A DNA stretch of 64,000 bases from positions 30,130 to 94,129 of IMG/VR virus record IMGVR_UViG_3300020508_000005, one strand, 5' to 3'. Positions 609 to 49,330 of the stretch are shown piece after piece. A program made the translations under genes and the position numbers. Source of the DNA: a virus (Duplodnaviria > Caudoviricetes). The notes under the pieces were generated by a model. It searched no databases. It saw only the letters and a list, made by a program, of their open reading frames with translations, and had not been told where the DNA came from. Positions within the stretch are counted from its first letter, which is position 1; each line of letters begins with the position of its first letter.

Positions 609-728
609 AGTTTTGGCATGTGTTTAAAACACTGTTGTCTATAAATCAAGAAATCAGAATAAGATGTTTACAGAATTTTTTGATTTCTTGTATTTTGAGT
701 TTTGTACCCTTTTTGGAAACAACACCTT

Positions 729-801
729 GCATCCTTAGCTCAATTGGTAGAGTGGTGAACTCTAAATTCACAGGTTGTGGGTTCGAGCCCCACAGGATGC
801 A
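729..801 (+). tRNA. Amber suppressor tRNA, anticodon CUA (762-764)
   Basis: Cloverleaf GCATCCT/AGGATGC, D arm GCTC..GAGT, anticodon stem GTGAA/TTCAC with loop CTCTAAA, T arm GTGGG-TTCGAGC-CCCAC; no encoded CCA. Confidence 0.88.
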
Positions 802-835
802 TTTTCATTTTAAGAAATTAGTTTAAAGGCACAAC

Positions 836-2008: not shown

Positions 2009-4021
2009 ATGAATAATTTGGGATTTGTTAGGATTGCTGTTTGCTCTCCAAAAATATCGGTTGGAAACCCAAGGAATAATTATTCTCAAATCGCCTCTCT
2101 ATTAGATCAAAATGCAGATGCTGATATTGTAGTTTTTCCCGAATTATGCGTCACGGGATATACTTGTGGCGACTTGTTTCGACAAGAGTATTTGCTTCAA
2201 TCTGCCAAAGACATAATCCATGGAATTTCTGCTTATGCAACAAAGAAAAAACATCAATTGGTCTTTGTCGGTGCACCCTACGTTGTAAATAACGAACTTT
2301 TTAATTGTGCCTTCGCCATCAACAATGGAAAAGTAATTGGAATTGTTCCTAAGACTAACATTCCTAATTATTCTGAATTCTATGAAAGTCGTTGGTTTCG
2401 TTCAGCAACCGGAGACGAACCTAGCGAAGTTTCATTTACAGACTATAACTATAAAGTGCCTTTTGGCATTGATTTACTTTTTAAGTTTCGAGATCTGTCT
2501 GTGTTTGCAGAAATTTGCGAAGATCTTTGGATGCCAATCCCTCCTAGTAGTTTTGCGGCAATACATGGAGCTAATGTGTTAGTCAATCTGTCAGCTTCAA
2601 ATGAAACTGTTGGTAAAAACGAATATCGTGTTGATCTTGTGAAAAACCAGTCCGCAAGATGCATCGCAGCTTATGCCTACGCATCTGCTGGACCATCAGA
2701 ATCTACAAGTGATCTTGTTTTTGGTGGACACTGCATTGTTGCTGAGAATGGAAAAGTTCTTGCCCAAACTCAAAGAGTAGGAGAAAACAAACAATCATCA
2801 TTTGAAAATGGTTGGTACACGAGTGTTGATGTTGATATAGAGAAATTACAAAATGAACGCCGTACAATCACTAGTTTTGGAGATTCAACTCGCACAATCA
2901 ATAAAAAGTTCCGAAATGTAGAGTTTCTTTTGAAAATAGAAAGCTCTCATGATTCCTTGCCAACACTCAAAAGGCAAGTTGATGGCAATCCATTCGTACC
3001 TGAAAACGCTATAGAAAAAACCAAGCGTTGTGCTGAGGTTTTTGAAATCCAGTGTGCTGGATTGCATAAAAGATTAGAGGCTTTGAATTTTGGAAATATT
3101 TACATTGGTGTTTCGGGCGGGTTAGATTCCACTTTGGCACTACTCGTTGCAGCAAAAACTTATAAAATGGCCGGTGTTGATGTCGCAAAAATTCATGGAA
3201 TAACTTTGCCCGGTTTTGGCACCACTAGCAAAACCAAAAACAACGCTTTGGCTTTAATGTCAGCGTTGGGAATATCTCAAGAGACTATCGACATCCGTCC
3301 AATTTGCCTTGAAACCTTCAAAGCATTGAAACACAAATCATTTGGGGCGATTGATTATGACATCACTCTTGAAGAGTTTGAAAAAGCATTAAAGTTAGTG
3401 CCAAAGTCTCAGAGATATGATTTGGTTTTTGAAAATGTACAAGCCAGAGAAAGAACTAAGCTTTTAATGAGTCGCGGATTTGTTTTGGGAACAGGGGATC
3501 TGTCTGAAGCCGCCTTGGGTTGGTGCACTTACAATGGCGACCACATGAGCATGTATAATGTTAATTGTTCAGTGCCAAAAACTTTGGTGCGTTCAGTAGT
3601 TGATTTCGTAGCTAGAAGAGATAATAAAATGGACGATCTCTTCGCAGTGCTTACAGATATTCTTGACACAACAATTTCACCAGAGCTATTACCTCCTAAC
3701 GAGTCTGGTGAAATTGAACAGTCTACCGAAGATGTGCTTGGTCCATATGAATTGCACGATTTTTATCTTGCAAACTTTGTAAAGAATGGATTTTCTCCTG
3801 AAAAGATTTTGTACCTTTCTGAATATGCAAAATTTTCTAAGACATATTCAACAGATGTGCGTGAAAAAACGTTGAAAACATTTTTAAGCCGGTTTTTTAG
3901 TCAACAATATAAACGAAATTGTGTGCCCGATGGGCCTAAAGTTGGTTCTGTGAGCTTATCTCCTCGTGGAGATTGGCGAATGCCTTCTGATGCCGATCCT
4001 AGCATGTGGTTCAAGCAATGA
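2009..4021 (+). CDS. nadE: Glutamine-dependent NAD+ synthetase
   Basis: Nitrilase domain (VFPEL, PNYSEFYE, EICEDLW) plus synthetase domain (GVSGGLDST, ENVQARER, GTGDLSE, SPRGDWRMPSD). Confidence 0.96.
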   Translation: MNNLGFVRIAVCSPKISVGNPRNNYSQIASLLDQNADADIVVFPELCVTGYTCGDLFRQEYLLQSAKDIIHGISAYATKKKHQLVFVGAPYVVNNELFNCAFAINNGKVIGIVPKTNIPNYSEFYESRWFRSATGDEPSEVSFTDYNYKVPFGIDLLFKFRDLSVFAEICEDLWMPIPPSSFAAIHGANVLVNLSASNETVGKNEYRVDLVKNQSARCIAAYAYASAGPSESTSDLVFGGHCIVAENGKVLAQTQRVGENKQSSFENGWYTSVDVDIEKLQNERRTITSFGDSTRTINKKFRNVEFLLKIESSHDSLPTLKRQVDGNPFVPENAIEKTKRCAEVFEIQCAGLHKRLEALNFGNIYIGVSGGLDSTLALLVAAKTYKMAGVDVAKIHGITLPGFGTTSKTKNNALALMSALGISQETIDIRPICLETFKALKHKSFGAIDYDITLEEFEKALKLVPKSQRYDLVFENVQARERTKLLMSRGFVLGTGDLSEAALGWCTYNGDHMSMYNVNCSVPKTLVRSVVDFVARRDNKMDDLFAVLTDILDTTISPELLPPNESGEIEQSTEDVLGPYELHDFYLANFVKNGFSPEKILYLSEYAKFSKTYSTDVREKTLKTFLSRFFSQQYKRNCVPDGPKVGSVSLSPRGDWRMPSDADPSMWFKQ

Positions 4022-14847: not shown

Positions 14848-15114
14848 GGCGGAGAAATGATTTGGTTCTTACGCAAAGCTATTGCATTTTTGCAGAAATA
14901 AAGAGGCACCTTAACCTTTTTAATAGGCGGTACAATCTTTGTTTTTCTAATTTTGCAAGTTGTATTAAGCAATATCTTATAGGGTTTCATGCATTATATT
15001 AGTAAAAAATAGCTTAAATTATCAAACTTTATGTTTTCTAATAAAAGATCCAATCAATCTAATAAAGAAGTCTGGATATTGAAAACTAAACCATAGATAA
15101 ACGTGAGGAAAAAA

Positions 15115-28077: not shown

Positions 28078-28899
28078 ATGGTTTATTCAAATAAATTTGT
28101 TGTGTGTGTTTTAGTTAATGATACGCCTCAAAATGAACTTGCAAACGGAATTGTCAAGATTCCATTTAATTCAGAATACGTTTTACGATTTAGAAATAAA
28201 AACAATCGTCGTGCTCTAGTCAAAGTAGCGATTGATGGAGAAAATGTTTCAAATCATGGCTTTATTATTCCAGCCAACTCTTACATTGATGTAAAAAGAC
28301 CAATTAATAAGGATGCTGCCTTTAAATTTGTCTCTTTGGATTCTCCAGATGCAATAGATCATGGAAAAAATGGCCCTAATGATGATAAAATTAAAGGCAC
28401 CATAGATGTGAAGTGCTATCTTGAAAAAGAATTATCGCTGCAAAAAATTTATTTTGCAAAATATCCAAGTTGGGCAAGCAACAACACTGTATATAGAAAA
28501 AAATCTAATTGTGACTCCAAATCAGTATTTGGGACGGCTAGTTGTTTACGTTGCCTGCCACAAAATGCAAAATTAAATCAACCCCTTGATTTAAAAACTA
28601 TTGAGACAGATGATTCGCAAGATGGTTGCACAGTTGAAGGTAATGAAACAGGGCAAGAATTTGTTTCTGCCTCGATTGAATGTGAGGAAACTTATACTTC
28701 AGTTAAGTTGTTTTTGCAAGGTTGCCAGCCTCAAGAAACTAAACCAACTATCTCTACAAATAGAAAAGTAGATGCCCTTGAAGCAGAGAATCAAAAACTT
28801 CGAGAGCAGATCGCTGAGTTAGAAAATAAGAAGCTTAAGTTACGACTCAATGAGTTATCTAAAACTACGACTAAGAAAAGAACAAAAAAAAGTGTATAA
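28078..28899 (+). CDS. Hypothetical phage protein with C-terminal coiled coil
   Basis: AGGAG RBS; EY.LRFRN...RRA.V.V.IDG.NV. Confidence 0.65.
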   Translation: MVYSNKFVVCVLVNDTPQNELANGIVKIPFNSEYVLRFRNKNNRRALVKVAIDGENVSNHGFIIPANSYIDVKRPINKDAAFKFVSLDSPDAIDHGKNGPNDDKIKGTIDVKCYLEKELSLQKIYFAKYPSWASNNTVYRKKSNCDSKSVFGTASCLRCLPQNAKLNQPLDLKTIETDDSQDGCTVEGNETGQEFVSASIECEETYTSVKLFLQGCQPQETKPTISTNRKVDALEAENQKLREQIAELENKKLKLRLNELSKTTTKKRTKKSV

Positions 28900-28906
28900 C
28901 ACTGTT

Positions 28907-28935
28907 AAAAAGCTCGGGGAAACCCGAGCTTTTTT
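28907..28935. terminator. Bidirectional terminator
   Basis: AAAAAGCTCGGG-GAAA-CCCGAGCTTTTT between convergent genes. Confidence 0.8.
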
Positions 28936-29194
28936 ATTTCATTTTTAGTGTTGATGCTTCATAAGTCACACTTTCAATTATATGTTTAATTTCAGTTGGA
29001 AACTCATCATCAAATATATCGCAGATATTTTCTAAATTTAATTCTCTTTCAATTTTAAATATCATGTCTATTAGATCAAAAGAATCAAAATTTAAATCTT
29101 TCACTACATCCATATTTTCATCTATAGACTTCACCTCAATAGCGGCAATGTCCGCTATAATTTTCATTATAGATTCACTTGTATTTATTGACAT
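28934..29194 (-). CDS. Acyl carrier protein-like
   Basis: Acidic 86 aa; DLNFDSFDLIDMIFKIE matches phosphopantetheine DSxD site. Confidence 0.7.
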   Translation of the reverse strand: MSINTSESIMKIIADIAAIEVKSIDENMDVVKDLNFDSFDLIDMIFKIERELNLENICDIFDDEFPTEIKHIIESVTYEASTLKMK

Positions 29195-29198
29195 ATTT

Positions 29199-29750
29199 TT
29201 ATGAAAACCAAAAATTGCGATCTGTTTGGTTTAATAAATCGCCCAAAAGCATTATGACCCAATCTTTGTAATGAATTCTGTAAGTGAATATAGATTCATC
29301 AAGAGGTGCTAAATCACTTAAAAGTATCATAGCTAGCCACGGCTTTCTTGAACGTTTCCAGCATATTAAAGGCTTGCGTCCACAGTAGCTTGCGTCACGC
29401 TGTGACTGCTCGATAAACGTGTCTATACGAGATATACCATCATTAAACAAAGCGTTTAAGTCTATGTCATCCTCATAGCCACCTTTAGATTCAATCACCC
29501 ATTTGAATTTTTCTGGAACACACACATCACCTGTAAGGGTTTTCTTAGCGTGCTCTGGCAAAAAAGAAACTTGACTCCATCTTGCACCTGATCCGGGGGC
29601 CTTAGAAAATTCTTCTCCAAAGTGGTCGCTTAGTAGTTTGCAAAGCTGAAGTTCCGTTCGGTTTCCTTTTGCTTTTCCATCGACTTTTTTCTTATTCGTT
29701 TTTTGCTTGCTATCAAACAAGTTTTCAATTTGCAGGTCTTTATCATCCAT
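29199..29750 (-). CDS. Holliday junction resolvase, PD-(D/E)xK type
   Basis: KAKGNRTE, PGSGA, GD, IESK, WKRSRKPWL. Confidence 0.75.
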   Translation of the reverse strand: MDDKDLQIENLFDSKQKTNKKKVDGKAKGNRTELQLCKLLSDHFGEEFSKAPGSGARWSQVSFLPEHAKKTLTGDVCVPEKFKWVIESKGGYEDDIDLNALFNDGISRIDTFIEQSQRDASYCGRKPLICWKRSRKPWLAMILLSDLAPLDESIFTYRIHYKDWVIMLLGDLLNQTDRNFWFS

Positions 29751-29758
29751 GTGGCTCC

Positions 29759-30979
29759 TTAATTTTGAACTAACCTCAAAGTTCCCTTCAAATCGTCTTT
29801 TATTTGATTCAAGCTTTGTAATACAGAATCATATCTTTCAACGTCCATAGATCCTTCACTAATCAGGTTGCCCATGGTTACTTCAATATCTTTAGTGATT
29901 CTTCCAATATCAAAACACGAATCTTCGTAATCTATCGAACTAAATTTATCTAAATCAGAAACTTCAAAATTATCATCTTTTTTCCAAAGATCAAAGTCGT
30001 TTTCGTACTCATCTAATGTAGTATTGCCCTTAGGTTTTTTAAATGTTTTGATTTCATCATCTTCATCTAAATTTGAAACAATTTCAAAATCTGCCTTGGC
30101 AGGTTTAATTTCTTTGTATGAGCCTATTTCGAACTCTTTTCCCGAATCATAAACCTTTAATTGAAATCTATAAATGTCCGAATCTTGAATGTGACCGCTA
30201 GAATGATTAAGAGAAAAATACCAAGCTTGACGCGAAGGCAATTCAATTAGCTTGGTTGAATTAAAGCATAGATTTTGTAATTGTGGGTTAAATAATAGAG
30301 CTTTACTCCATATGTCTGGAGTTGAAAAGAAAAATATTTGTCCTAGTAAATCACGTAAATCTACTAACCACAATGGTCGTTTTTCATTTCTAAAAAGAAA
30401 TAGCCCTCTTTCATCATAGCTAATTCTTTCACCCAAAGCAACTGCCATAGCACCTTGAGATATATGCGACCATATATCTTTAATTCCATTCAATCTAGAA
30501 GTGATTTCAGGCGAGATATTTTCTAATGGATTTTCTTGTGAATCCATTCCATGTTCATAGATTCGCAACAAACACTCAGAGTCTGTTTGAGATAATGTTT
30601 GATATTTGCTTTTAAGATATTCTGCCTCATCAATATTTCCATTATGGACCATGCCTATTCTTTTATCAACGCTGACGAAAGGGTGATTGTTCGCATTTAC
30701 ATTCGCATTTCCGCCTTGGCTTGAAGTTGCTCTCGCATGAATCAAAACAGTGTCTGTTTTGATTTTCTTTAGCCTTTGCCAAAAAGGATCTTTAATAAAT
30801 TTACTAGAACGAATAGGCTCTTTGTGATACAGAACGCGACCTTTTCCACCATGTTCAGTAGCCCATACTCCCGATGCGTCAAAACCTCGGGTTTCAAGAA
30901 AATCAAACAAAGCGGTAATTAGTTCAAAACTCGTCTTAGGCTTTTTAGAAGCACCAATATAACCAGCAATTCCACACAT
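29759..30979 (-). CDS. Class II (Ntn) glutamine amidotransferase domain protein
   Basis: MCGIAG, RG.DASG, HARAT, NNHPF, HNG, TDSE. Confidence 0.85.
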   Translation of the reverse strand: MCGIAGYIGASKKPKTSFELITALFDFLETRGFDASGVWATEHGGKGRVLYHKEPIRSSKFIKDPFWQRLKKIKTDTVLIHARATSSQGGNANVNANNHPFVSVDKRIGMVHNGNIDEAEYLKSKYQTLSQTDSECLLRIYEHGMDSQENPLENISPEITSRLNGIKDIWSHISQGAMAVALGERISYDERGLFLFRNEKRPLWLVDLRDLLGQIFFFSTPDIWSKALLFNPQLQNLCFNSTKLIELPSRQAWYFSLNHSSGHIQDSDIYRFQLKVYDSGKEFEIGSYKEIKPAKADFEIVSNLDEDDEIKTFKKPKGNTTLDEYENDFDLWKKDDNFEVSDLDKFSSIDYEDSCFDIGRITKDIEVTMGNLISEGSMDVERYDSVLQSLNQIKDDLKGTLRLVQN

Positions 30980-39781: not shown

Positions 39782-40180
39782 TCAAGACATCAAAGATGGC
39801 ATAGAATTTACAGATGGGTTGGATTGTTTAGGTGGTTCTTTTTCTTCGCCCTTATCCAAAGGTTTTTTGTTTAAGATATGATCCAAAACATCCCATACAT
39901 TTGCGGTCTTTGGAATTATTGGAGTATTATCTTGGCCACCCATGCCCGGAGAGCCCCCCATTCCCGGAGGTCCATCCATGCCCGGAGGGCCACCCATTGG
40001 TGGTGCTCCACCCATTCCCGGAGGTCCGCCTAATCCCGGAGGTCCACTCATTCCCGGAGGTCCGCCTAATCCCGGAGGTCCACCCATTGGTGGTGCTCCA
40101 CCCATAGGAGGTCCACCCATAGGCGGAGCACCACCCATAGGATCAGCTTCAGATAAAAGAAAGAATTGTCGGAACTTCAT
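39782..40180 (-). CDS. Pro/Gly/Met low-complexity protein, possibly virion-internal
   Basis: MKFRQFFLLSEA followed by GGPPGM/GGAPPM repeats. Confidence 0.7.
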   Translation of the reverse strand: MKFRQFFLLSEADPMGGAPPMGGPPMGGAPPMGGPPGLGGPPGMSGPPGLGGPPGMGGAPPMGGPPGMDGPPGMGGSPGMGGQDNTPIIPKTANVWDVLDHILNKKPLDKGEEKEPPKQSNPSVNSMPSLMS

Positions 40181-40272
40181 GCTTATATGTACTGAACTGC
40201 ATTACAAAAAATTTTTGGTAAATCAAAGCATTTGAAAAAGAAAATCAAATCAAAAATTTTTTGATTTTCTAC

Positions 40273-40301
40273 TTGAAAATTTTTTTCCTCATGACTACTA
40301 T
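40273..40301 (+). promoter_or_regulatory. Sigma70-like promoter of the tRNA operon
   Basis: TTGAAA-N17-TACTAT in AT-rich intergenic region. Confidence 0.6.
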
Positions 40302-40356
40302 ACTAAAGTTCAATTAACTATTGCGTGTCCGACACAGGCACTTAAAAAGTAAAATC

Positions 40357-40416
40357 ATGAAAACCTTGTTTAGTTCATATCTGTTATCGCTATCCTTGCT
40401 CAGCCAAGGAACGTAA
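40357..40416 (+). CDS. Attenuator leader peptide MKTLFSSYLLSLSLLSQGT
   Basis: 19 codons; codons 4-16 all Leu/Ser/Phe/Tyr; lies within alternative RNA hairpins upstream of a terminator. Confidence 0.8.
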   Translation: MKTLFSSYLLSLSLLSQGT

Positions 40417-40485
40417 CCGGTACGGACTAAACACAAAAGGGCAAAAAAGCCCAGTGGTCCTACCGGGACCACTGGGCTTTTTTGC
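40367..40485 (+). promoter_or_regulatory. Transcription attenuator (protector, antiterminator, terminator)
   Basis: 1:2 = 40367-40386 with 40414-40433; 2:3 = 40417-40429 with 40455-40466; 3:4 = 40441-40460 with 40466-40485. Confidence 0.8.
40441..40485 (+). terminator. Intrinsic terminator in front of the first tRNA
   Basis: Perfect 20-bp inverted repeat GCAAAAAAGCCCAGTGGTCC / GGACCACTGGGCTTTTTTGC with U6 tract. Confidence 0.9.
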
Positions 40486-40503
40486 TTGATAGAACTAAAA
40501 GTT

Positions 40504-40586
40504 AGAGCGATGGCTGAGAGGCTTAAAGCGTCGGTCTTGAAAACCGAAGTGGGCAACCACCGGGGGTTCGAATCCCTCTCGCTCTG
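40504..40586 (+). tRNA. tRNA-Ser(TGA)
   Basis: AGAGCGA/TCGCTCT, TCGGT-CTTGAAA-ACCGA, long variable arm, G73. Confidence 0.92.
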
Positions 40587-40620
40587 TTTGGATTTTTGAA
40601 AATTTGGTGTGATTGGATAC

Positions 40621-40701
40621 AGAGGGTATCCGAATGGTTAGGAAACTGCTTGGAAAGCAGTCGAGCTTATTGCTTTGCGGGTTCGAGTCCCGTGCCCTCT
40701 G
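40621..40701 (+). tRNA. tRNA-Ser(GGA)
   Basis: AGAGGGT/GCCCTCT, ACTGC-TTGGAAA-GCAGT, long variable arm, G73. Confidence 0.9.
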
Positions 40702-40702
40702 C

Positions 40703-40825
40703 TCAACTTAATTAGGTGTTGCGGCTGCACTCCCCTCAGTGAGAGGGACCGTCGTGGTTCAAATCCACGCTAGAATTGGATTGAGGTTAAATGAAGGCTA
40801 GGTTCGAATCCTAGAATTAAGTTGA
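40703..40825 (+). ncRNA. tRNA-like RNA with two T-arms
   Basis: 11-bp terminal stem; CGTGG-TTCAAAT-CCACG and CTAGG-TTCGAAT-CCTAG. Confidence 0.55.
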
Positions 40826-40828
40826 TTT

Positions 40829-40918
40829 GGAAGTGATGGAAAGTGGCTATTCCAGCATCTTTGCTAAAGATGTGGCCCCTTAAATGGTGGTCTGCAAGTT
40901 CGACACTTGTCGCTTCCG
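40829..40918 (+). tRNA. tRNA-Ser(GCT)
   Basis: GGAAGTG/CGCTTCC, CATCT-TTGCTAA-AGATG, long variable arm, G73. Confidence 0.88.
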
Positions 40919-40920
40919 CT

Positions 40921-41037
40921 TGATTGATCGATAGGTTTCAAGAAAGATATTTCTTGAAATTGGGGTGGCATAGATAGTCAATTGTGGCTATTGAGGGCTT
41001 CAATTCCCCGAGAGTGATTAGACTCTACTTTCAATCA
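40921..41037 (+). ncRNA. Unassigned multi-hairpin structured RNA
   Basis: TGATTGA/TCAATCA closing stem, internal hairpins, T-loop-like TTCAATT. Confidence 0.4.
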
Positions 41038-41041
41038 TTAT

Positions 41042-41123
41042 GTCCGTGTGGTGTAACAGGTAGCCACGTCAGACTTAGGATCTGATGCCGCAAGGCGTGG
41101 GGGTTCGAATCCCTCCACGGACA
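41042..41123 (+). tRNA. tRNA-Leu(TAG)
   Basis: GTCCGTG/CACGGAC, TCAGA-CTTAGGA-TCTGA, variable arm, A73. Confidence 0.93.
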
Positions 41124-41124
41124 C

Positions 41125-41205
41125 TTGAGAGAATGTTGACAAGGATTACATCTCCAGAAAAGATGTGACTAAGGTCACTTATCTTTGTCGTGTTTTGTCT
41201 CTCAA
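41125..41205 (+). ncRNA. Unassigned three-way-junction RNA
   Basis: TTGAGAGA/TCTCTCAA and GACAAGGAT/ATCTTTGTC stems capped by two hairpins. Confidence 0.35.
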
Positions 41206-41209
41206 AAAT

Positions 41210-41291
41210 GTCCATATGGTGTAATTGGCAAACACGCCAGTTTGAGGTACTGGTGCCGCAAGGCGTGCAGGTTCGAGTCCTGCTATGGACA
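41210..41291 (+). tRNA. tRNA-Leu(GAG)
   Basis: GTCCATA/TATGGAC, CCAGT-TTGAGGT-ACTGG, A73. Confidence 0.92.
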
Positions 41292-41367
41292 CTTTTTTAG
41301 AAAGGAGAATGCTATGAACATAGCAGTTTTGGGTTTTCTTTAAGGCATTTACCTTAAGGAGAATATC

Positions 41368-41571
41368 ATGTATCATAGGAAACCAAGAACCACACAAGAG
41401 AGACGTGCAAATGGACCTCGATGTCAGTGGGTTTGGCATGATGAGTATCGAGTGAAATATCGTGCTAGAAGAAGCATGTGCATGTTAGTCGAAGCTTGGG
41501 ATGATCTTCCAAGAAGCGATTACAACTTTAGAAGTTGGAAACGTCATCGACGGACTCAGTACAAATCATAA
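41368..41571 (+). CDS. Small basic phage protein within tRNA array
   Basis: AAGGAG RBS; R.PRTT.ERR...AWDD...SWK..R..QYK. Confidence 0.7.
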   Translation: MYHRKPRTTQERRANGPRCQWVWHDEYRVKYRARRSMCMLVEAWDDLPRSDYNFRSWKRHRRTQYKS

Positions 41572-41577
41572 AAATTT

Positions 41578-41662
41578 GCGGTTGTGGCGAAATGGCAGAC
41601 GCAACGGACTTAAAATCCGTTGGGAATTAAATCCCGTGTGGGTTCGACTCCCACCAGCCGTA
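41578..41662 (+). tRNA. tRNA-Leu(TAA)
   Basis: GCGGTTG/CAGCCGT, ACGGA-CTTAAAA-TCCGT, A73. Confidence 0.93.
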
Positions 41663-41701
41663 TTTGAAGGATGATAAAATCAAGAGATTGTTTTAATTTG
41701 T

Positions 41702-41774
41702 GGCTGGTAAGCTAATCTGGTGAAAGCGTCTGCCTGAAGAGCAGAAGAGGTCGGATCGTAACCGACACCAGCCA
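41702..41774 (+). tRNA. tRNA-Phe(GAA), atypical T-loop
   Basis: GGCTGGT/ACCAGCC, TCTGC-CTGAAGA-GCAGA, T arm GTCGG-ATCGTAA-CCGAC. Confidence 0.8.
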
Positions 41775-41794
41775 CTTGCAAGAATGCAGAATAG

Positions 41795-41867
41795 GTTTAC
41801 ATCGCTAAATGGAAAAAGCACTGGTTCAAAAAACCGGTTATTGCGGGTTCGAGTCCCGCTGTAATTT
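41795..41867 (+). tRNA. Degenerate tRNA-like element (loop TCAAAAA; AAA or CAA reading ambiguous)
   Basis: Good D, anticodon and T arms; weak acceptor stem; nested in a longer outer stem. Confidence 0.45.
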
Positions 41868-41913
41868 GATCTTAATTGATCAAAAGACTTATTCATTTTT
41901 GTCTTGCAAATTT

Positions 41914-41999
41914 GTGAGAGTATCCAAATTGGTGAAGGAGACGGACTGTAAATCCGTTGCCACAGGCTGAACATGGGGGTTCGAATCCCTCCTCTCACA
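41914..41999 (+). tRNA. tRNA-Tyr(GTA)
   Basis: GTGAGAG/CTCTCAC, ACGGA-CTGTAAA-TCCGT, long variable region, A73. Confidence 0.9.
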
Positions 42000-42004
42000 C
42001 TCTT

Positions 42005-42086
42005 GTCCGTGTGGTGAAATTGGCAGACACGCTAGACTCAAAATCTAGTGCCTTAAGGCATGTGGGTTCGAATCCCTCCATGGACA
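42005..42086 (+). tRNA. tRNA-Leu(CAA)
   Basis: GTCCGTG/CATGGAC, CTAGA-CTCAAAA-TCTAG, A73. Confidence 0.92.
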
Positions 42087-42088
42087 CT

Positions 42089-49144: not shown

Positions 49145-49330
49145 ATGCTACAGACCGGAGACTACTACTTAGAAAATGGCAAGTATGTACTGACTGAATC
49201 TTATCTCGCTAGGAGGGGTTTTTGTTGCAAAAACGGATGCCGACATTGTCCATACATATCAAAAGCAAGTAGCATAAATAAGACGGAGAATAATGATGAC
49301 AGCAAACTTAGAAGAGATGAAAAAAATTAG
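49145..49330 (+). CDS. DUF5522-like Cys-rich small protein
   Basis: DYY.ENG..V.TE.YL..RG.CC.NGCRHCPY. Confidence 0.75.
   Translation: MLQTGDYYLENGKYVLTESYLARRGFCCKNGCRHCPYISKASSINKTENNDDSKLRRDEKN

Follow-up and report, generated by a model that had tools for sequence, protein, structure and literature searches.

A putative leader-peptide attenuator in front of a phage operon for Ser, Leu, Phe and Tyr tRNAs

The reason for the presence of transfer RNA (tRNA) genes in phages has been debated for decades, as recounted in one paper (PMC10264068). Could the control of their transcription tell what these genes are for? The question is raised by a locus in the virus record IMGVR_UViG_3300020508_000005 of IMG/VR (Duplodnaviria; Caudoviricetes), of which we analysed a window of 64,000 nucleotides (nt), positions 30,130 to 94,129 of the record; unless indicated otherwise, coordinates are those of the window. 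At this locus, a promoter, a short open reading frame (ORF) and a strong terminator precede an operon of ten tRNA genes for serine, leucine, phenylalanine and tyrosine. Comparison with related phages and modelling of the RNA folds make it, in our estimate, highly probable that this arrangement is a ribosome-mediated (leader-peptide) transcription attenuator that gates the operon.

The leader and the operon behind it

The spacer of 322 nt between a divergent gene for a Gly- and Pro-rich protein (39782-40180, minus strand) and the first tRNA gene holds the promoter, the ORF and the terminator in this order. The features of the leader are the following.

40273-40301, plus strand: promoter TTGAAA-N17-TACTAT, host sigma-70 type (consensus scan)
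40308-40356, plus strand: 5' untranslated leader, a small hairpin and then an unpaired A-rich stretch up to the start codon (fold)
40357-40416, plus strand: leader ORF, 19 codons and TAA, which reads MKTLFSSYLLSLSLLSQGT and then stops
40366-40404, plus strand: control codons 4-16 (Leu six times, Ser five times, Phe, Tyr; 12 different codons)
40364-40390, plus strand: segment 1, the 5' strand of the protector (1:2) hairpin, within the control codons (minimum-energy folds)
40393-40410, plus strand: apical hairpin of the 1:2 structure, 6 pairs
40411-40443, plus strand: segment 2, the stop codon and the following bases, which partners segment 1 or, via 40417-40429, segment 3
40439-40452, plus strand: mini-hairpin (GGGC, 6-nt loop, GCCC) that occupies the base of the left arm of the terminator in the antiterminator state
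40455-40466, plus strand: segment 3, the top of the left arm of the terminator and the loop; forms the antiterminator with 40417-40429, 12 pairs with one bulge (constrained folds)
40441-40485, plus strand: intrinsic terminator (3:4), 20-pair stem, U tract at 40478-40483, -39.2 kcal/mol

The promoter pattern occurs only once on the plus strand of the window, and among such promoters in the 94-kb record, that at 40273-40301 is the only one that precedes a strong terminator; a promoter-like site at 15025 on the minus strand is followed by neither a leader nor a terminator, and a scan of the whole record found no second cassette. The start codon at 40357 lies in the unpaired A-rich region of the fold, which would give this short ORF the access to ribosomes that is expected of a leader-peptide attenuator. 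Furthermore, the 13 consecutive Leu, Ser, Phe and Tyr codons of the ORF are cognate to the products of the operon that follows, and an intrinsic terminator stands between the leader ORF and the first structural gene, its end 18 nt before the tRNA-Ser gene at 40503. The possibility that this is the terminator of the upstream gene was considered and rejected, given that the upstream gene is divergent.

The program ARAGORN identifies ten tRNA genes up to position 42087, nine of which are supported by Rfam, and a single protein-coding gene is embedded in the array.

40503-40587, plus strand: tRNA-Ser (TGA), ARAGORN and Rfam
40621-40702, plus strand: tRNA-Ser (GGA), ARAGORN and Rfam
40829-40919, plus strand: tRNA-Ser (GCT), ARAGORN only, no Rfam match
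41042-41124, plus strand: tRNA-Leu (TAG), ARAGORN and Rfam
41210-41292, plus strand: tRNA-Leu (GAG), ARAGORN and Rfam
41368-41571, plus strand: gene for a 67-amino-acid (aa) basic protein inside the array, strong Shine-Dalgarno sequence
41577-41663, plus strand: tRNA-Leu (TAA), ARAGORN and Rfam
41702-41775, plus strand: tRNA-Phe (GAA), ARAGORN and Rfam
41794-41868, plus strand: tRNA-Phe with the unusual anticodon AAA, beside the normal Phe-GAA, ARAGORN and Rfam
41914-42000, plus strand: tRNA-Tyr (GTA), ARAGORN and Rfam
42005-42087, plus strand: tRNA-Leu (CAA), the last gene of the operon (the next gene is convergent, on the minus strand), ARAGORN and Rfam

Each of the 10 anticodons of the array is represented by a leader codon, and conversely, tRNAs of the array can read all 13 control codons. 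This is the match that an earlier, sequence-only reading of this DNA had claimed; its list of nine canonical tRNAs stands, whereas its count for the array was short by one, the Phe-AAA tRNA found by ARAGORN making ten.

The unconstrained minimum-energy fold of the leader RNA consists of the 1:2 hairpin, in which the first control codons are paired with the stop-codon region, and the terminator (fold z-score: whole leader -9.4, 1:2 part by itself -5.2). The effect of translation was modelled by constrained folds, with the footprint of a ribosome on codon 6, 10 or 16, or at the stop codon, and with segment 4 not yet transcribed. When the footprint covers codon 6, 10 or 16, the predicted best fold is the antiterminator together with the mini-hairpin (-19.4 kcal/mol); when it is moved to the stop codon, the antiterminator is gone and -8.7 kcal/mol are left; and with no ribosome, the 1:2 hairpin forms (-26.6 kcal/mol), so that segment 3 stays free for the terminator. 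The predicted folds thus switch in the same manner as those of the trp attenuator. Leader-peptide attenuators are recognised by 1:2, 2:3 and 3:4 helices that exclude one another, and these are present as predictions, from the constrained folds and from the co-variation described below.

These results bear out the sequence-only reading, which had placed the promoter, the restricted codons and the three helices where they are found here: the consensus scan hits the promoter, codons 4-16 encode only Leu, Ser, Phe and Tyr with 12 different codons, the minimum-energy fold includes a long 1:2 hairpin (approximately 40364-40390 with 40411-40443) as the proposed protector, the proposed antiterminator is predicted once a ribosome sits on the control codons, and the terminator has the 20 pairs, the U tail and the distance to the first tRNA gene that had been given for it. 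The notion that the position of the ribosome selects the fold, with the antiterminator upon stalling and none at the stop codon, is likewise what the constrained folds predict.

Could a run of such codons simply arise by chance in a T-rich spacer, next to a terminator? The six frames of the window contain two runs of at least 13 Leu, Ser, Phe or Tyr codons. The second run (49285-49326, minus strand; 14 codons, 11 different), which overlaps the start of a 309-aa ORF on the plus strand, speaks for this possibility; as a chance control, it comes without a start codon, a terminator or a tRNA context. The probability of finding such a run alone in the 322-nt spacer is approximately 0.005; because the run by itself is only moderately unlikely, comparative data are needed.

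The cassette in related huge phages

The locus itself has no match among GenBank phages in a megablast search, and a more distant search matched tRNA genes only; searches that started from the Gly/Pro-rich neighbour or from a single SbcD-like protein found no relatives either. Relatives do come into view through the 67-aa protein of the array, which is very basic and belongs to no Pfam or PHROG family; two other huge phages have homologs of it (~50% identity) in their tRNA regions, and by this route two distant huge-phage contigs are reached in which the tRNAs are again almost only those for Leu, Ser, Tyr and Phe. The 254-kb genome G001 (G+C content 0.55) contains, in this order, an SbcD-like gene, a Gly/Pro-rich gene, a TTGACG-N17-TACTAT promoter, an ORF of 26 codons in which codons 4-16 are only those for Leu, Ser, Phe and Tyr, a terminator and the tRNA region. 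With an alignment of two SbcD proteins as the query, the set of relatives grows to 68 huge-phage loci (G+C content 0.27-0.63), and every SbcD-adjacent tRNA array among them has a cassette directly upstream of the first tRNA gene, on the same strand.

There are 17 distinct cassettes (G+C content 0.33-0.60), those of G004 and L026 included. The -10 box is TACTATA or CATATATTA, in the same place; the ORF starts with ATG or GTG, with GGAG or AAGGA 6-12 nt ahead of the start in most of the 17, and consists of a run of 11-19 codons that specify only Leu, Ser, Phe and Tyr, followed by a short unrelated tail; the stop codon is inside the 3' strand of a long hairpin, after which comes, in all cases, a strong terminator. 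A G-run followed by a C-run, as in the mini-hairpin of the window, recurs in most relatives. The sequence-only reading had named homologs without the ORF and the antiterminator as evidence against itself, and what the relatives display is the opposite: the ORF, the 1:2 hairpin and the terminator are found in 17 of 17 distinct arrays, and the 2:3 helix co-varies. As judged from these sequences, it is the conservation in relatives that puts the run of Leu, Ser, Phe and Tyr codons beyond chance. The explanation by chance, which is refuted by a layout that is kept in 17 cassettes across this range of G+C content, down to the start codon, the frame, the position of the stop codon and the helices, thus retains hardly any credibility.

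Might the ORF instead encode a small hydrophobic peptide that acts in its own right, the terminator ending its transcript and the tRNAs being expressed independently? A 19-mer rich in Leu, Ser and Phe indeed resembles a membrane or signal-like peptide. However, the sequences of the leader peptides differ among the relatives, and composition alone is kept, which is the signature of a leader peptide rather than that of a functional peptide; the runs are without Ile, Val, Ala and Met, residues that a hydrophobic peptide would allow; the leaders of other tRNA blocks (see below) are hydrophilic and matched to their own tRNAs; and the RNA helices overlap the ORF and co-vary. In addition, the stretch of 17 nt from the terminator to the first tRNA gene is too short to accommodate a separate tRNA promoter. 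We regard this explanation as very unlikely.

If the leader senses the decoding of particular codons, its composition should follow the array, and this is what the relatives indicate. The array of L026 is the only one with Cys tRNAs (two Cys-GCA), and its leader is the only one with Cys codons (two) inside the run. Phe is missing from the run in a subclade one member of which, G006 (341 kb), has 18 tRNAs, none of them for Phe. The array of L033 comprises only Ser, Tyr and Phe tRNAs, and its run of 13 codons includes eight for Ser, three for Tyr, one for Phe and a single one for Leu. Moreover, in G003 (436 kb, 62 tRNAs) and G004 (527 kb, 63 tRNAs), other blocks of tRNA genes have promoter-ORF-terminator cassettes of their own (L076-L083). 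These blocks are composed of tRNAs for Asn, Lys, Ile, His, Gln, Arg and Cys; for Met, Pro, Gly, Asp, Thr, Glu, Val and Ala; for Arg, Val, Gln, Ala and Gly; or of a mixture of 26 tRNAs, and each has a leader of matching composition, as illustrated by the Arg/Val/Gln/Ala/Gly block, the leader of which abounds in Arg, Ala, Val and Gln. In both genomes, the block that a leader matches best is always its own, with a match of leader residues of 0.56-0.85 to the own block versus 0.00-0.63 to the other blocks.

The correspondence extends to the choice among synonymous codons. With the amino acid sequences of 16 leaders fixed, the summed number of different codons is 175, compared with 154.7 +/- 4.5 under uniform synonymous choice and 145.5 +/- 4.6 under local codon usage; for the leader of the window alone, p is 0.008 against local usage. 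A readable leader codon for every distinct anticodon of the array is present at 15 of 15 loci, for which the chance is 0.14-0.96 per locus and the product, if the loci are independent, ~1e-8. Both observations lend support to the earlier suggestion that tRNA function is monitored at the level of isoacceptors.

Do the helices co-vary, as had been proposed as a check for 2:3? RNAalifold applied to MAFFT alignments recovered the terminator only, or nothing; because these alignments were not structurally consistent, alignment-free tests were employed, in which the duplex energies of cognate and permuted partners from 16 phages are compared.

1:2 pairing: z -6.0
2:3 pairing: z -4.5, p 2e-5
3:4 pairing: z -11.6
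1:3 pairing (negative control): z 0.0, not significant

The 2:3 helix thus does co-vary across the 16 phages, and the cognate 2:3 pairing of the window ranks 1/16 against chimeras; compared with shuffles, the 1:2 region has a mean z of -3.05. DNA from four public runs yielded the identical leader or unrelated tRNA matches, with no informative variants.

How the switch would work and what it would sense

From the geometry and the conservation of the cassette, we infer that the leader is translated, that translation is coupled to transcription and in which direction the switch responds. The host RNA polymerase would start at 40273-40301, and a ribosome would translate the 19-codon leader during RNA synthesis. 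As long as the 13 Leu, Ser, Phe and Tyr codons are read fast, the ribosome would arrive at the stop codon and cover segment 2, the terminator would form, and transcription would end 18 nt before the first tRNA gene; with no ribosome, segments 1 and 2 would pair and the terminator would form as well. When any one of the required charged tRNAs is scarce, the ribosome would stall on codons 4-16, hiding segment 1 and leaving segment 2 free; the freed bases 40417-40429 would then pair with 40455-40466 while the mini-hairpin at 40439-40452 occupies the base of the left arm, the terminator would come too late to form, and the tRNA genes would be transcribed. Because the leader has at least one codon for each tRNA of the array, the products are expected to relieve the stall, resulting in negative feedback with the resolution of a single isoacceptor.

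Several observations weigh against this interpretation. In stability, the antiterminator (-19.4 to -24.0 kcal/mol) falls far short of the terminator (-39.2 kcal/mol), as had been noted from the start; the terminator always wins at equilibrium, and therefore the switch has to be kinetic. No Shine-Dalgarno sequence is discernible in the letters upstream of the leader ATG at 40357, a reservation that likewise persists for the window, whereas most relatives do have one; an obvious Shine-Dalgarno sequence is also absent in about half of the long ORFs of the window. For roughly half of the relatives, chimeric 2:3 partners pair at least as well as the cognate ones, because the shared pairing of G-run and C-run dominates. 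In one lineage (L038/L040), the leader contains seven Ser codons, and no Ser tRNA is recognised on the 99-kb fragment, which makes an apparent exception. The first tRNA gene is, in some relatives, separated from the terminator by protein genes, so that the regulated unit does not always consist of tRNAs only. Finally, because several loci are close relatives, the statistics for the family overstate the number of independent cases.

Three of these points, the disparity in stability, the weak specificity of 2:3 in about half of the relatives and the Shine-Dalgarno sequence missing in the window, are also what one would expect if the ORF and the hairpins were conserved for reasons other than the sensing of decoding, that is, as a fixed partial terminator, as a structure for 5' processing or stabilisation, or as a timing device, with translation merely opening the hairpin or protecting the RNA. 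Such an explanation, which we consider improbable, would leave unexplained why the run is confined, in 17 cassettes, to exactly those amino acids that the tRNAs behind it carry, why Cys, Phe and Leu content shifts with the array, why the leaders at other blocks are composed differently, and why synonymous diversity exceeds chance and covers all anticodons.

If the cassette is an attenuator that senses decoding, what is it for? The physiological trigger may be a general demand late in infection or the loss of tRNAs to defence nucleases. It seems likely to us, with somewhat less assurance than for the attenuator as such, that huge phages run a modular tRNA homeostat with the resolution of single isoacceptors: the tRNA genes would be organised in blocks, each with a conserved host-type promoter and an attenuator of its own whose codon roster covers every anticodon of the block, so that the phage reads the speed of decoding for each codon family and makes only the block that is short. 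The locus in the window would be the Leu/Ser/Phe/Tyr module.

Under an alternative scenario, the attenuator is real, and its natural trigger is the damage of tRNAs by host defence nucleases or the host shut-off by the phage itself, so that the cassette would sense an attack by the host and answer it with replacement tRNAs, instead of balancing supply and demand in general. Infections threatened by tRNA-cleaving defences can be rescued by tRNAs of the phage, as published work shows (PMC10264068, PMC11555353, PMC11464382); the same phage has an RNA ligase and a Thg1-like repair polymerase beside a suppressor tRNA, which fits a contest over the integrity of tRNAs; and one codon per isoacceptor would allow sensing the loss of any single tRNA species. 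However, the full set of tRNAs is distributed, in relatives, over at least three blocks that each have a matched leader, and several separately gated blocks argue for general bookkeeping rather than for a reply to one nuclease; moreover, stalling reports any shortage, amino acid starvation included. We consider this trigger possible and distinctly less likely than the homeostat.

Known attenuators and the surroundings of the locus

The leaders of ilvGMEDA, ilvBN and thr, along with trpL, hisL, leuL and pheL, are multivalent leader-peptide attenuators of enterobacterial amino acid operons. They share with the phage cassette, as interpreted here, a short translated leader, regulatory codons for more than one amino acid, the 1:2, 2:3 and 3:4 helices, a terminator before the first structural gene, and the decision on the fold by the position of the ribosome. 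The phage cassette differs in being phage-borne; in its output, which is tRNAs instead of biosynthetic enzymes, so that the product acts directly on the sensor; and in the codons themselves, which the enterobacterial leaders repeat (one or two codons) and the phage leader spreads over nearly all synonymous codons (12 of 13 different). The best Rfam match of the element is Thr_leader (RF00506), which is full-length and mostly driven by the terminator, with 27.6 bits against a gathering cut-off of 55, and Phe_leader scores 17.8; the Thr_leader score is an architectural resemblance and not membership.

Leader-peptide attenuation of a gene of the translation apparatus is also known from pheST of E. 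coli, where the pheM leader senses the level of charged tRNA and controls phenylalanyl-tRNA synthetase; that system is chromosomal and deals with a synthetase and one amino acid, whereas the phage cassette would act on tRNA genes directly, for four amino acids and ten isoacceptors. T-box riboswitches are likewise transcription attenuators that report the state of tRNA and control translation-related genes, but they bind one uncharged tRNA directly and need no ORF, whereas the phage cassette has an ORF with conserved start, frame and stop. The T-box was rejected as a candidate, since 40250-40520 has no T-box match in Rfam at E up to 10.

Phage tRNA clusters that serve codon compensation or counter-defence are described (PMC10264068, PMC11555353, PMC11464382, PMC11025619) as a supply of the phage's own tRNAs, to which the present cassette would add gating by demand. 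A word look-up in two of these papers yielded no attenuation, leader peptides, terminators or promoters for tRNA genes, a full-text literature search returned no description of leader-peptide attenuation of tRNA genes, and Rfam has no family for a leader-peptide attenuator of tRNA genes. The mechanism is of a known kind; what is new is its target, its roster of codons and its occurrence in a phage.

If the interpretation as an attenuator is true, this would be the first class of attenuators whose output is tRNA, and attenuation would extend to genes for non-coding RNA, with direct feedback by the product and with a design that is new in that each of many different synonymous codons probes an isoacceptor of its own. 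With a sensor of decoding speed in front of its tRNA genes, the phage itself would treat tRNAs as a supply on demand, and the cassette would give a testable read-out of what creates the need, be it codon demand, host shut-off or defence nucleases. The composition of a leader would predict the tRNAs of one regulon in the genomes of uncultured phages, and synthetic biology could make use of the cassette as a compact device that senses the availability of tRNAs.

The record that contains the locus is a 94-kb fragment with a completeness of 19% according to CheckV, which implies a genome of several hundred kb. The genes on the fragment include a phage-type ribonucleotide reductase and SbcC/SbcD-like genes, and matching DNA is present in freshwater and lake metagenomes. 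Two further features of the window belong to this setting.

39782-40180, minus strand: gene divergent from the leader promoter; its 132-aa product is rich in Gly/Pro/Met repeats
728-802, plus strand: tRNA with the anticodon CTA (amber suppressor; labelled Pyl by ARAGORN)

The order of the SbcD-like gene, the Gly/Pro-rich gene and the leader cassette is shared by distant relatives (L006 1563-1867 is an example). The suppressor tRNA is immediately preceded, just before and at the start of the window (G000:C1 ~28745-30737), by the genes for the RNA ligase (PF09414, 95 bits; L084 3246-4379) and the Thg1-like tRNA 5'-end polymerase (PF04446, 109 bits; L084 4324-5238), a pair that, by its domains, looks like a tRNA-repair module of the same phage. 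The relative G004 has suppressor-type tRNAs with the anticodons TTA and CTA side by side (L082, reverse-complement coordinates 3576 and 3651), and a tRNA-Phe with the anticodon AAA is also found in the relative G003 (L078, at 12521).

Several minor observations concern the array itself. The gene for the 67-aa protein is preceded by a 9-codon mini-ORF with a Shine-Dalgarno sequence of its own (41315-41344), and a motif similar to that at the C-terminus of the protein was seen in G004. The three larger gaps of the array yielded low-confidence hits: with relaxed thresholds, ARAGORN reports a tRNA-Leu (GAG) with a 36-nt intron (40706-40823) in the gap 40703-40828 and a tRNA with the anticodon TCA, opal-suppressor or SeC-like (40964-41037), in the gap 40920-41041, and the gap 41125-41209 has a weak Rfam match to Y RNA-like (YrlB) at 41121-41209 (24.7 bits, E 0.07). 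In the relative G001 (L006 ~2895-3545), a sequence resembling the 5' half of a tRNA-Leu comes first, then an ORF of 162 aa, and then a complete tRNA-Leu whose own 5' half is nearly identical to the first, an arrangement that may reflect the disruption or duplication of a tRNA gene by an insertion of the mobile endonuclease type; many arrays of the relatives are interspersed with ORFs of this kind.

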